A DNA stretch of 64,000 nt from Eledone cirrhosa (lineage: Eukaryota), in assembly GCA_964016885.1 (NCBI GenBank), contig OZ024740.1, positions 347,386,001 through 347,450,000 on the forward strand. Reading direction: 5' to 3'. Below, piece after piece: positions 269 to 56,494 of the stretch. Under the pieces are notes generated by a model, which saw only the letters and a program-made list of their open reading frames with translations, was not told where the DNA came from and did no database searches. Position numbers and translations under genes: made by a program. Position 1 is the first letter of the stretch. Each line of letters begins with the position of its first letter.

Positions 269-632
269 TATATTAGTAGAAGGAAAAGAAAATGCTGACA
301 AATTTTTCCCAGTGAAAAATAGTTTAGTTAGGAATAAATAAAAATTAGTAATAAGTATTGGTTAGTATTCAGTTTTAGTTTTAAGCTTCTACAGGTTGCG
401 CATTTCTAATGCTTTTCAAAAATAATTTTGAGATAGAGCGCTCGTGATGTTTGCCACGGGCGCTCTATCTCAAAATTATTTTTGAAAAGCATTAGAAATG
501 CGCAACCTGTAGAAGCTTAAAACTAAAACTGAATACTAACCAATACTTATTACTAATTTTTATTTATTCCTAACTAAACTATTTTTCACTGGGAGAAATG
601 TGTCACCATTTTCTTTTCCTTTTACTAATATA
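269..632. mobile_element. Foldback PLE terminal-repeat (pLTR-like) insertion between (TA)n tracts
   Basis: Arms about 269-441 and 460-632 are near-perfect reverse complements. A solo copy of the same sequence lies at about 51657-51885. Confidence 0.75.
479..514 (+). ncRNA. Variant minimal type I hammerhead (UUGAAAA...GCAA core)
   Basis: ttt TTGAAAA gcatt-aga-aatgc GCAA cctg TA gaa. Mirror copy at 387-422(-). Third copy at 51817-51852(-) has palindromic ACCGGT stem III. Stem I is only 3 bp. Confidence 0.45.
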
Positions 633-1563
633 TATATATATATATATATATATGTATGTACGCATGTATGTATATAAATATATATATATATATATATATA
701 TATATATATATATATATATATATATATATATATATATATACATACATATATTATATGTAAATATGTATATATAAAAAATATAGATAGATAGAGAGGGGGG
801 GGGAATAGAGAAGGGGAGAGAGACACGTATGTATATATAAATATATGTGTCCAATATTCACAGTAGCCTTTGTAGCACAACAGAATTTAATTTATTTTGA
901 ACTAATTACTGCGAGGTTTTGTGACAAATGCCTTATTTTAACTATATATATATATATATATATATATATATATATATATATAGAGAGAGAGAGAGAGAGA
1001 GAGAGAGTGTGTGTGGGGTGAGGGTGATTGATAGATAGATTGACAGATTGATAGATAGATAGACAGATAGATATATATATATATAGATAGATAGATAGAT
1101 AGATAGATAGATAGATAGATAGATAGATAGATAGATAGATAGATAGATAGATAGATAGATAGATAGATAGATATTATATGGCTACAAAATGAATCGAATA
1201 TTATTATTATTCGATATAAACTCGATATAAATCTTACATTTATATAATACACTATGAGAGCGAGAAACCAAATTCTAATTTTGTTTTTGATTTTCGACAA
1301 AGCCAAACGTAAATTCGCTCGGTATGCAAATTAGGCCTATCACCCAATGTATACATTAAGAAATACTGTATATTTTCAAAAGTTAAAACGAGTGGCAGAG
1401 AGGTACTTAGTGTTGACAGAGGCCATCGATCCAGAAATATGTTGAATGTTCCTAGATGCCACTGCTAGAACGAACTGATGACGATGTTCATCAATTTAAT
1501 ATATATAGTGTAATGAGGATGTTTCCTTGCATACAAACCGAATGGTATTATTATTATTCGAGA

Positions 1564-1757
1564 GGGTGATGGATTGGCCGTATCGGTAGTGAGTCGGACG
1601 CTATGCTTTTCAGTATAGAGTTACGTCCCTTTATGAACTGAGTTCAAATCCCACCGAGGCTAACTTTGCCTTTCATCATTATGGGGTCGATAAAATAAAG
1701 TACCTTAATTTACTTGGAAATTGCTGACCTTGTGCCAAAAGTAGAAACAATATTATT
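1564..1757 (+). mobile_element. tRNA-derived SINE
   Basis: Pol III A-box-like head, B-box GAGTTCAAATCC, core GCCTTTCATC..GGGGTCGATAAAATAAAGTACC, tail GTAGAAACAAT(TAT). More than 10 copies in the window. Confidence 0.85.
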
Positions 1758-1874
1758 CGATATGAAACTCATATACATGTATGCTTATATATATATATAT
1801 ATATATGAGTGTGTATGTGTATATATGTATGTGTGTGTATATATATATATATATATATATATATATATATATAT

Positions 1875-2995
1875 AACGAAGGAAATGTGGTAAGGAACCA
1901 GGTGGACCATAACGCACCAAAGTACTCAATACTTGAGGTAGTAGAGTGGGTAATAGGAACCAGTAAGACCCCGACAGCTGAGCTCAAGCCGTTTCGACGG
2001 CTAATTCTGGACTAAATGAAAATTTATCCTGGTATTTAAATAGCCGATCTTCTCAAGGGGTAATTCCATATATGGTCAAAGTGATTGTCAAAAATCAGTA
2101 GTAATTCTGTGGTTGCAAATTAGTAGGGGAGATGGTGGCTAAACCTGCCAGTAGGAGAAAGAGGGGAGGGGGTGGAGTAGACCCAATCAAGCGTTGGTAG
2201 TGCCAGCTACAGCTGGGCATGAGGTCAAAGAAGATACAGGGGAGGGGGAGGGGGAGGAAGTCGGAACGGTAGGTAGAACAATGGGGGGTAGAAATATATA
2301 GGAAAGAAAAAATACTGAGAGTGAAGAAAAGCAAATAAGTGTAAAGAAAAAAGTAAAGTAAATTAAATTCTACGACCTAGGTCTCTAGCTATTGTTAGGC
2401 TAGAATAAATAAATAAAGAAAGAAAGAAAGAAGTAAAGAAAGAAATAAAGAAATAACGAAATAAGTAAAAGAACTAGGTGGGACGGAATTGGCAAGGACC
2501 CTTTTAAGAGGTATAAGTACGTAAATGATACGGTGACGGGTCAACAAAAGGGGCCAAAACACTAAAGAGACTACCACGAAATAAACAATAAAGGTTTCCA
2601 TCCCGGGCACAATGCCAGCAACCACCCAGTGCAGCAAAGTGAACTTGTACGAGATAATAATTCTGAGTCCCGAGAAAAATATATACTAATGCTAACTCTA
2701 AAAGATCTAAAACAAGCTACATGAAAGTTCGTACGAAGTAAAGGTAGAATACGGAAAAATAAATTCAGAATCCACCCCGCCCAAAAGAAAATCGAAGAAA
2801 GAAATACTGAAACGAAAAAATAAGGCATAAGTGCCACTAAGAAATATAGAGGGCACAGAGAATAGTGGGAGCGGTCGGAAAAAGGGGACAAGTATCCGGG
2901 GTCTAAACCAACTGCTATAAAGGGCGGAGTCCGCCAAATCTATCATAGACTAGGGGAGGGGGTGGGGGTACTGTCGGGGTCTTACTGGTTCCTAT
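1875..2995 (-). mobile_element. Non-coding PLE terminal fragment with short inverted 5' copy, flanked by (TA)n
   Basis: The same end (aacgaagg..tggtaaggaacc) abuts (TA)n at 1875, 11649, 33777 and 57657. 2971-2995 is an inverted copy of the region around 1953-1977. Carries an HHR. Confidence 0.7.
1968..2061 (-). ncRNA. Type I hammerhead ribozyme with U3:A8 core
   Basis: Minus strand: acccc TTGAGAA gatcggcta...tagccgtc GAAA cggcttgagctcagctg TC ggggt. Stems I, II and III all pair. GUC cleavage triplet. Confidence 0.8.
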
Positions 2996-3294
2996 ATATA
3001 TATATATATATATATATATATATATAGACTGCTCAGTCAAGGTGATCAAGGTGATATATATATGTATATACATATATGTGTGTATGTGTGTATATATATA
3101 TGTATGTGTGTGTGTATATGTATATGTATATATATATATATATATATATAGACTGCTCGGTCAAGGTGATCAAGGTGATATATATATATATATATATATA
3201 TATATATATATATGTGTGTGTGTGTGTGTGTGTGTGTGTGTGTGTGTGTGTGTGTGTGTGTGTGTGTGTTTGTATGTATATATATATATATAAA

Positions 3295-3820
3295 TTTTGC
3301 TTGTTCCGCTCATTTCAATTTTATACTTCTGTTATCTCAAATTAATACCATTGAACAAGAACTGTATTATAGACACCCTATATATTTCCGTGGGTACTTG
3401 GTACCTGTGGGGATATTGATCTCATTTTATGTATATTCTCCCATCTGTGTAGAGAAACATTTCGTTGTATACCTAGCTGCTATTTTTTTAGTAGTGTGCC
3501 AAACAACACGTCTATAATATTCCCTCTTCTACTAACGACCAGTTCACGTGTAGGTCATGTTTACGACCCCACTCCATCTTTCACTAGCTGGCTGAAGGCA
3601 ATGCATTTGCCTGCTATATGGGACTATATGTCCTATGTAAGGGAAAACGCTTTCTGAAAAGCCGATTTTTCCATTGGAACTCCCTTGGATTTCCAATCTT
3701 TTGTGAGGCGAAACCGTCGGTAAAAGCATTATGAATGGGTAAATATTTAAATTGTATTTTGAATTTATTTTGAAAGATTGTTTAAATGTTGCTTGTTCCG
3801 CTCATTTCAATTTTATATAT
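3295..3820 (-). mobile_element. Degenerate retroelement fragment (possible PLE RT remnant) bounded by direct repeats
   Basis: Direct repeat ttgcttgttccgctcatttcaattttata at about 3297 and 3789. Minus-strand remnant FLYTDGRIYIK*DQYP weakly resembles the region before RT motif B. Confidence 0.35.
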
Positions 3821-54720: not shown

Positions 54721-54820
54721 TATATATATATATATATATATATATATATATATATATATATATATATATATTGGTAGTAGATTTTAATTTTAATTTCATA
54801 TCTTATATCCATAATAAAGA

Positions 54821-54892
54821 TATTTCATCTGACGAACGAAACACGCATCTGTTACAATCGTCTAACTTCGTGAAACCTTGGGTAATGGAATA
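54821..54892 (+). ncRNA. Canonical type I hammerhead in an island of about 150 bp between (TA)n tracts
   Basis: tatttcat CTGACGA acgaa...ttcgt GAAA ccttggg TA atggaata. 8 bp stem I, GUA triplet. Confidence 0.85.
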
Positions 54893-55094
54893 ATTATATG
54901 GTGTTGTTTATTACATAATTAAATATGTATATATATATATATATATATATTGAGAGAGAGAGAGAGAGAGAGAGAGGGAGAGAGAGAGAGAGAGAGAGAG
55001 AGAGAGAAATAGTTAGGTAGACAGAGAGATCGATAAGTAGATAAATAGATAGATAGATAGAAAAATAGGTATCTATATATATATATATATATAT

Positions 55095-55626
55095 ATTGTT
55101 ATACTTTGGGAGGGTCATGTTGCCAATAAGAAACACACGCACAAGGTGCTTTCACTCCAATTTATTATAAATAAGTTTATAAATTTAAGAATGTATAAAT
55201 TTCCGGTTGGTTGGTTGGTTGGTTCCACAACCGGACGGTTTTTCATATATTGTCAAAGTTCTTTTGTTACACATTATGTGACCTCTTCAGTGACTGGGAA
55301 TTCTTTTCTTTGTTTTGTGCTTCTCCTTTATTCTGTCCTACGCCGTCTTGTTTTTGTGTGTGCTGATAACAGTCACTGAAGAGGTCACAGAATGTGTGAC
55401 GAAAGAACTTTGACACTATATGAACAACCGTCCGGTTGTGGAACCAGCCAACCAACCGGAAATTTATAAATTCTTAAATTTATAAATATAATTTATAATA
55501 AATTGGAGTGAAATTTGCTGGTGCGTGTGTTTCTTATTGGCAACATGACCCTCCCTAAGTATAACAATATCGGTTTCAACAGACGTTTTCAGATAAAGAA
55601 TCTTGCTAAACAAATTCAGAAACGAT
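55095..55626. mobile_element. Foldback of a Naiad-like pLTR
   Basis: 55095-55295(-) and 55371-55626(+). Intact HHR at 55372-55414(+), mutated copy at 55252-55294(-). Both outer ends lie in (TA)n. Confidence 0.85.
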
Positions 55627-56404
55627 ATATATATATATATATATATATATATATATATATATATATATATATATATATATATATAAATGTGTGTGTGTGT
55701 GTGTGTGTGTGTGTGTGTGTGTGTGTGTGTGTGTGTGTGTGTGTGTGTGTGTGTGTGTGTGTGTGTGTGTGTAAGACTCCGAACATGCAAACCACCATAG
55801 CACTGGCAAAAAGGGTCTGGCTGCTAAGAAAAAGACATCACATTGAAGGTGTTTCAAAATTCAATGTCATATAAAACTGGAAGTAAGAAAATCATCACTC
55901 TTCCTAAGTGAGCAATTTAGGATTTTACTGTGTCTCTACTCACCGGATATATATCTAACACCATGTCAGACACGATCTCATAAAGCTCCTGAACTCTCTA
56001 TGACGGATTAACAACTTGTTGAAAGAGACATTAAGTTTACAAAATCATACTGCAACAAACAATCACACAAATATACAACATTTTACGTCACAGAATTTAA
56101 ATTTGGTGAATCACAAATTAAGATTCAGATTTTTAGTGAAAATGCATATTTCCGCATATATTTAAGTGTTTTACAGTTTGGTCTGACACTCGTCGCTCCA
56201 ATCCTTTTCATTTAATGTTTACATATGTGTGTGTATATATATATATTAAATACTTAAGCATGAGCATCACGAAAGTGGCTTATTAGTCCTGCTAATATAT
56301 ATATATATAAGTTTATCCCGGGTTCAATCGGGGGGAAACACAGTAAGGTGCTCAATACAAAGCGGAGAATAAATATTTAATATAGAAATAGCTTCTACAG
56401 GAAA

Positions 56405-56494
56405 AGAACTATTTCATTCGGGAGAAATCATCATGATTTCTGATGATCTTCTGAAGATTTCTCCCGAATGAAACAGTTCTAGTCCTTTAGAATC
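56405..56494. repeat. Short foldback with HHR-like arms
   Basis: gaactatttcattcgggagaaatc / gatttctcccgaatgaaacagttc. Right arm reads CTGAAGA t-ttc-tccc-gaa-t GAAA cag..TA gaatc. Confidence 0.5.

Follow-up and report, generated by a model that had tools for sequence, protein, structure and literature searches.

Head-to-head Penelope-like insertions in (TA)n microsatellites of Eledone cirrhosa probably arise by twin priming from two fixed internal sites

Why do the foldback insertions in the microsatellites of one 64,000-nucleotide stretch of the Eledone cirrhosa genome (assembly GCA_964016885.1, contig OZ024740.1, positions 347,386,001 to 347,450,000; hereafter the window) always carry the sense strands of their ribozymes facing outward, and what kind of event produces them? 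The window belongs to a (TA)n-rich animal genome of 3.0 Gb. An earlier note, made from the letters alone, had listed 11 such foldbacks and proposed that both nicked strands of the palindromic (TA)n independently prime reverse transcription from the 3' end of an element RNA, the two complementary DNAs (cDNAs) being joined in the middle. We have next to no doubt that the sites are Penelope-like elements (PLEs; Hydra- and Neptune-type), and the foldbacks are head-to-head PLE insertions into (TA)n, probably made by twin priming on one RNA. That the two arms are two separately primed cDNAs is very likely; that both cDNAs come from a single RNA we hold with fair confidence. The structure itself is known and its polarity is a real general rule; our analysis adds quantitative evidence for an unreported coupling between two outer ends, a short one (S) and a long, tail-bearing one (L).

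Strands were assigned with a custom scan for type I hammerheads that allows C3-G8 or U3-A8 cores and that replaced an earlier regular expression blind to minimal and U3-A8 motifs. In 654 kb it returned 67 matches at a score of at least 10, where Markov-shuffled DNA gave 0.5, and in 1.45 Mb 124 matches forming 35 clusters; the best 150 of the 256 matches of an Rfam scan held no hammerhead and consisted of microRNA-model matches on microsatellites and other weak ones. The sense strand was set through the hammerhead-bearing family or through a linked GIY-YIG open reading frame (ORF; 23102 and the families at 269 and 46230). Oriented references were 29 of the 35 clusters, six doubtful ones having been dropped beforehand (one of these, F16, later looked real). 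The genome sample comprised 14 random blocks, 1.39 Mb from nine chromosome-scale contigs; neighbouring opposite-strand copies with a gap of at most 1 kb and no (TA)5 between them were counted as a pair, and a short interspersed nuclear element (SINE) served as control. RNA 3' ends pointed outward in 97 of 98 pairs, compared with 11 of 25 SINE pairs (14 inward), at a density of about 70 outward pairs per Mb sampled. The sole inward pair is an inverted repeat, not of PLE origin, in the flank of a reference. At a limit of 4 kb, outward pairs numbered 104 (22 families) and inward ones 11; in ten of the inward pairs a (TA)n run separates the two copies, which are read as neighbouring separate insertions. 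Arm orientation outside the window is therefore not random, and the polarity is a real, general rule and not chance. The rule alone is not new, head-to-head orientation having already been published for PLEs, and it cannot serve, as had been argued, as evidence for two-strand priming, because snap-back of a single cDNA gives the same head-to-head geometry.

The outer ends are bimodal in all 12 families examined, with S and L lying 40-120 nt apart, and the tails measure 40-145 nt. Of 100 family A alignments, 71 end at +61 or +144, and 50 start between -3 and +7 relative to an initiator-like A, which itself stands 29 nt behind a TATA-like box. Random blocks and window together gave 113 head-to-head pairs, 11 of them unclassifiable; among the 102 classified pairs, 92 combine one S with one L end, seven have two L ends and three have two S ends, whereas about 50% one-tail pairs would be expected from independent choice (P ~4e-18). 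The random blocks alone give 82 one-tail pairs in 92. Searching the genome with only the 64-nt inner arm gave no matches, so that the random blocks were used to sample tail-free copies. Independent priming by each strand does not survive this count. Neither does priming at the RNA 3' end, for the ends are two fixed internal sites past which read-through copies run on, as with the PAc (Poseidon) element in vitro (PMC11167929). A TA-alternating run of 2-7 nt stands at the S site in 12 of 12 families (mean 4.2 against a background of 2.2 nt, P ~1e-4), and the sequence at the L site, readable in two families, begins TAT or similar. Ends lie near (TA)n in 186 of 204 cases against a background of 13%, a figure that is partly circular in that the place of the flanking TA run helped to define the S and L classes. 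A palindromic (TA)n plausibly helps both strands to pair with the UA-rich start sites; it is not the required cause once supposed, because rotifer PLEs form inverted pseudo-long terminal repeats (pLTRs) with ordinary target duplications of 8-10 bp (PMC3846280). Ribozyme cleavage as the cause of the ends was rejected for family A, whose arms cross the cleavage site and end at +1, +61 and +144; the hammerhead serves here only as a strand marker.

Self-comparison of the window after masking of microsatellites bore out inverted arms at all 11 listed sites (78-100% identical), and in each the left arm has its sense strand on minus, the right arm on plus. The sites stood and their extents did not: the one-sided tail had mostly been left out, and the true units reach 40-145 nt further out (corrected boundaries include 235, 3826, 31118, 46123, ~54015 and 56313). 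Outer ends mostly fall in or near (TA)n, as had been said, except at the left end of 23102, which meets (GA)n, and at the right end at 56494, which meets a C/CT run. The units are as follows.

235..627: foldback of family X1 (Neptune-type endonuclease); sense of the left arm minus, its tail ~40 nt long (235-273); tail-less right arm with sense plus; inverted arms 274-627, identity 94.9%; hammerhead-like motif non-canonical.
1876..2992: foldback of family A (Hydra-type); 1.09-kb left arm with an 80-nt tail, tail-less right arm of 21-26 bp, only 21 bp in common; complete U3-A8 hammerhead at 2056-1973, minus, in the left arm.
2013..2042, minus: putative pLTR promoter of family A, with TATA-like TATTTAAATA at 2042-2033 and an initiator-like A(+1) at 2013, a position at which the inner ends of arms accumulate; predicted transcription start site.
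3826..4661: foldback of family F06; tail left (3826-3891); inverted arms 3892-4661, identity 85.5%; hammerheads at 3957 (minus) and 4596 (plus).
11650..11839: short foldback of family A; tail 11650-11729; inverted arms 11730-11839, identity 100%; hammerhead 3' half only.
23102..24925: foldback of family X2; tail-less left arm adjoining (GA)n, right arm with a 144-nt tail; arms 23102-23666/24216-24781, identity 95.1%.
23709-24071, plus: GIY-YIG C-terminal remnant in the right arm of 23102..24925.
27524..31105: foldback of family F07; 3.2-kb left arm without tail, 337-nt right arm with a 95-nt tail; arms 27524-27766/30769-31011, identity 94.7%.
28727-28914: later SINE inside the left arm of 27524..31105.
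29953-30543, minus: GIY-YIG remnant in the left arm of 27524..31105.
31118..31425: foldback of family F18; tail left (31118-31198); inverted arms 31199-31425, identity 81%; hammerhead 31330-31250 on minus, 3' half on plus.
33105..33362: decayed foldback of family F03, tail right; absent from the earlier list.
46123..46355: foldback of family X3 (Hydra-type); tail of ~95 nt left; inverted arms 46225-46361, identity 89%; CAGAAGA hammerhead variant.
46864..47960: head-to-head insertion of family X3 with non-overlapping arms; tail arm 46864-46947, sense minus.
46950-47960, plus: remnant of reverse transcriptase (RT) thumb and GIY-YIG, joined to the tail arm 46864-46947.
54015..54720: foldback of family F01; arms 54228-54361/54485-54629, identity 89%, with a stretch resembling a microsatellite inside them; additional tail on the left; left arm with a decayed hammerhead core, right arm with a 3' half.
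55097..55624: foldback of family F04; tail right (~60 nt); arms 55096-55296/55370-55567, identity 83%; hammerhead core at 55290 (minus).
55376-55410, plus: complete hammerhead motif within 55097..55624.
56313..56494: foldback of family F13; tail left (56313-56392); inverted arms 56393-56492, identity 78%.
57659..57795: head-to-head insertion of family A; the minus arm is no more than the tail (+58..+141) and meets a plus arm of +1..+58.

The last of these has the classic twin-priming geometry and, its arms being non-overlapping, is undetectable as a foldback. Across the 92 one-tail pairs the tail arm is shorter than the tail-less arm on the inner side by at least 10 nt in 33, longer in 14 and equal in 42 (no call in three); the arms overlap by at most 12 nt in 19, and neither contains the other in 33. 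In such non-nested pairs neither arm was copied from the other, unless a later one-sided deletion is assumed. A long ORF-bearing arm without tail faces a short arm with a tail at 27524-31105 and at a Neptune-type locus; in the former, the short arm carries a tail that is missing from the 3.2-kb arm and so cannot be its copy. Both arms reach +1 at nine of 51 family A junctions, and in three of these only 0-1 nt lies between them, which is too tight for a fold-back loop. Non-consensus sites are common to both arms 369 times against 96 expected (106 one-tail pairs from random, window and search loci), and arm identity is 0.949 within a locus versus 0.892 between loci; the arms of one foldback derive from the same template lineage. 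Junctions, many of them short palindromes or microhomologies, arise anew at almost every locus, with 50 distinct central 16-mers among the 51 of family A; one junction recurs at two loci, 11650 in the window and L009. Two-strand priming with cDNAs joined in the middle is thus the part of the earlier proposal that gains support, from the non-nested arms, the two fixed TA-matching ends and the diverse junctions. Non-nested arms and shared variants fit two cDNAs made from opposite target strands on one RNA, and do not separate this from two RNAs of one locus.

The tails also hold a small hairpin, RCTC...GAGY, a few to ~20 nt behind S in F03, F06, F07, F12, F13, F18, X3, F14 and F26 (for example at 3826-3891, 31012-31105 and 31118-31198 in the window). 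Its two halves covary between families (ACTC/GAGT versus GCTC/GAGC). Six of 12 main tails contain GAGYRCY (shuffle P 0.006-0.03 each), and the hairpin is absent from X1, F04, F05 and F11. It is a candidate protein-binding element between both start sites. The microsatellites, for their part, are polar: in the window (943-1007, 8840-8964, 22958-23102, 46565-46681, 55625-55772 and 57523-57658) and the random blocks, (TA)n is followed in the 5'-to-3' direction by (TG)n 87 times, (GA)n 55 times, (CA)n 24 times and (TC)n five times, and some PLE ends adjoin (GA)n. This order could stem from repeat addition at nicked (TA)n 3' ends.

Under the mechanism that we propose, the PLE enzyme would nick the two (TA)n strands, and their 3' ends would prime one cDNA each on a single element RNA, at the S and at the L internal site respectively. 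The 3'-TA primers may pair briefly with 2-7 nt of UA-rich RNA at these sites, and both cDNAs would extend toward the RNA 5' end, often reaching the capped start of the pLTR transcript to give short foldbacks; on read-through RNA they would enter the ORF and give long arms. The two cDNA ends would presumably be joined by microhomology or filler-type end joining. We suggest tentatively, with a little less than even confidence, that coupled twin priming is the default of PLE integration: a dimeric RT-endonuclease would bind a conserved hairpin lying between two start sites near the 5' end of its own mRNA, nick both (TA)n strands and copy the same RNA with each subunit from its own site. If true, a single mechanism would underlie the inverted pLTR, the tail on one side and the preference for microsatellites of at least two PLE clades.

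Several observations weigh against twin priming on one RNA. The one-tail rule is broken in 10 of 102 pairs, family X3 shares no variants (0 shared, 26 unshared, six pairs), sequence beyond the L site is seen for only two of 12 families, and target-site duplications are unreadable in (TA)n. The cap signature is weak, with a non-genomic G at eight and an A at two of 40 family A ends at +1; X3 ends carry an extra G in four of seven cases, and an extra G before +1 is suggestive of cap copying. A look-up of RNA runs listed none that contains the region. Long palindromes that lose their centre unevenly after insertion could resemble non-nested arms, and two RNAs from the same source locus, or conversion between the arms at a later time, could also explain shared variants. 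Collision of both cDNAs at S, which we considered, is not supported: collision on one RNA would predict a pile-up of tail arms at S, and their ends show no excess there (6 of 29 against 4.9 expected, P=0.36), an absence that itself counts against our reading.

Tail arms without a pile-up at S are what two RNAs would give, and the closest competitor accordingly retains two-strand priming and places it on two RNAs held by an asymmetric dimer whose subunits are fixed to S and L, usually with one source locus. Polarity, non-nested arms and the one-tail rule are accounted for equally well, and at the two-tail locus L003 the arms belong to different subfamilies. We nonetheless think this arrangement unlikely: one source locus would have to dominate each event though several subfamilies coexist, and shared variant sites amount to 369 of 721 in one-tail pairs versus nine of 33 in pairs with two tails or none (nine loci; Fisher P=0.008, with sites that are not independent).

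Published proposals of another type require a single cDNA, or an antisense transcript (PMC3846280), that folds back and copies itself, the endonuclease then trimming one end (PMC8557442) and later deletions making the arms unequal. The same polarity and shared variants result, inner ends are indeed equal in 42 of 92 pairs, and the many palindromic or microhomologous junctions are as this process would leave them. It is, however, rather improbable as the general route. A later one-sided deletion would be needed in 33 of 92 pairs, biased to the tail arm (33 versus 14) and reaching up to ~2.9 kb at 27524-31105; fold-back cannot explain the three cases in which both arms run complete to +1 and only 0-1 nt separates them; and a 1.8-kb, 98%-identical palindrome persists in the sample.

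Could the hairpins instead be ready-made non-autonomous units, resembling MITEs (miniature inverted-repeat transposable elements), copied whole from a few masters with their polarity inherited? The junction shared by 11650 and L009 is what such copying would give, but the 50 distinct junction 16-mers in 51 family A foldbacks, the common solo arms with identical S and L ends, and the arms that run on into PLE ORFs make this very improbable; for family A, in which alone junction reuse was scored, it is largely refuted. A MITE or foldback DNA transposon was rejected on similar grounds, the ends being asymmetric in 92 of 102 pairs, without symmetric terminal inverted repeats, and the junctions differing at 50 of 51 family A loci. 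An assembly or library artefact of palindromic chimeric reads is hardly credible, because the arms have diverged in an age-like manner (78-100% identity), have family-specific ends and one-sided tails, hold nested later insertions and show a bias missing from the SINE control, and the structure is known from other species; the contigs and restriction-site-associated DNA reads matching 27530-31430 are short pieces with no junction-spanner among the matches listed, which is the one point in its favour and in itself neutral.

Preferring twin priming on one RNA, we return to the identity of the elements. The pLTRs occur in tandem and inverted arrangement with an optional tail, as in endonuclease-bearing (EN+) PLEs. 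Family A (1876, 11650 and 57659) is part of a 3.64-kb tandem unit with frameshifted RT and GIY-YIG pieces, and its SDKTG and LRWRT motifs, CNC linker with the third Cys replaced and CxxC..CxH place it with the Hydra type. The X3 linker CNCRNRVDC, the X2 endonuclease CGLC..E..N..YNH and the F07 linker, seen by eye only, likewise point to the Hydra clade, which is marked by DKT, an RWK-like motif, a CxCx5C linker and CxxC..E..N..CxH in the endonuclease (PMC8557442), the assignment being by motif and not by tree. X1 has a CDRPNCGIC linker and YVLTCSGCREQYIGQ, with the pLTR downstream of the endonuclease, in agreement with Neptune elements (Cx2-5CxxC linker, two Cys between GIY and YIG); it was assigned by linker and endonuclease motifs. 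The families at 23102, 27522 and 46230 come after Hydra-like endonuclease remnants and that at 269 after a Neptune-type endonuclease. Endonuclease remnants are linked to arms in F07, X1, X2 and X3, and an ORF link was seen for these four and for A; none was obtained for F01, F04, F06, F13 and F18. Pfam gave no match in the endonuclease fragments and a weak RVT_1 match in a neighbouring element.

A hammerhead, whole or half, had been claimed for each arm, and this holds in part. The sites with a complete motif are 3888, 31195 (left arm), 55095 and 1876 (left arm, U3-A8 variant); a half or a decayed core occurs at 11650, 27522 (right), 54062 and 56405; 269 (TTGAAAA..GCAA) and 46230 (CAGAAGA) have non-canonical forms; at 23102 only CTGAAGA was found, with no GAAA half. 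By scan or by eye, seven of the ten families at the 11 sites have a putative complete hammerhead, the motifs of X1 and X3 are non-canonical, and none complete was found in X2.

Other PLE-related sequences accompany these units. About 3.6 tandem copies of a 522-bp unit (34138-36005), 96-98% identical and each with a hammerhead core, form a retrozyme-like array of PLE family F05 that ends in (TA)n at the family L site. A near-complete broken PLE with RT and C-terminal GIY-YIG (48623-50990, plus), followed by a hammerhead-like motif at 50951, apparently sits at the end of an X3 copy. Locus L079 (G000:C5, ~40,080,935-40,083,024) is a 1.8-kb palindrome, 98-100% identical, of two head-to-head arrays built of a 310-bp hammerhead repeat of family F02, which we read as a young twin insertion of a tandem retrozyme-like RNA. 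More inverted-arm units, absent from the earlier list, lie at 26791-26954, 63406-63869 and 10050-10642; the first has a one-sided extension of ~43 nt and relatives that adjoin Neptune-like endonuclease remnants. An inverted repeat of 160-180 bp at 19930-20989, with 32-34 bp sub-repeats around a GC-rich core, has no hammerhead and no further copy in the 1.39 Mb sampled, and is possibly a terminal-inverted-repeat DNA element. On the minus strand, 58220-63199 is an L1/Tx1-like long interspersed nuclear element whose 1204-aa frame (endonuclease, RT, zf-RVT) is uninterrupted and has a 383-aa frame upstream of it. The abundant SINE presumably resembles an octopod SINE.

The origin of tandem and inverted PLE structures and of their microsatellite preference has been named as an open task (PMC8557442). 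In this 3-Gb genome, most insertions of dozens of families leave a palindrome behind, and these palindromes are a likely source of hairpin RNA, of rearrangement and of misannotation as MITEs.

Comparison with known systems begins with L1. Twin priming of L1 was reportedly described by Ostertag and Kazazian in 2001: the second target strand is said to prime a second cDNA on the same RNA, giving head-to-head, non-duplicated segments with microhomology at a variable second priming site. The likeness lies in second-strand priming on the same RNA and in the head-to-head segments; unlike in L1, the two sites here are both internal and do not vary, and the usually overlapping segments form a palindrome. 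Inverted 5' ends are moreover a minority outcome in L1, at 30.7% (PMC3219598).

Among PLEs, head-to-head is the most frequently observed arrangement (PMC3846280), and an inverted 5'-truncated copy, a one-sided tail and a (TA)n bias have been described for EN+ members (PMC8557442), the inversion being ascribed to self-priming and the tail to endonuclease resolution (PMC3846280, PMC8557442). Orientation, (TA)n preference and the one-sided tail are thus already published; two fixed ends, paired one of each, are the added detail. Published tails are 30-40 nt, without counts in the available passages of these two papers, whereas ours are 40-145 nt and counted. We found no description of S/L coupling, non-overlapping arms or shared arm variants, and no paper linking two start sites to two arms, in open-access full text, supplements lying outside the search. 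Minimal PLE hammerheads are of type I with a palindromic helix III and a U3-A8 core variant, and pairs 100-700 bp apart on opposite strands were already noted (PMC4209133); the direction of the pair is not given in the passages available and is set here, and CAGAAGA and GCAA are putative further variants.

The closest biochemical parallel is PAc, in which both strands are cleaved and extended in vitro, the tail is bounded by two internal sites at which reverse transcription begins, the reaction does not need ribozyme cleavage and the protein is predicted to form a dimer (PMC11167929), all in agreement with the twin priming proposed here. The clades differ, and the available passages of that paper report no homology of the start site to the cut DNA, whereas our S sites match (TA)n by 2-7 nt; nor do they tie the two sites to the inverted structure or include a per-molecule coupling test. 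The genomic pattern turns this comparison into a sharp prediction that can be tested in the PAc in vitro system, namely one S and one L start per insertion, both from one RNA.

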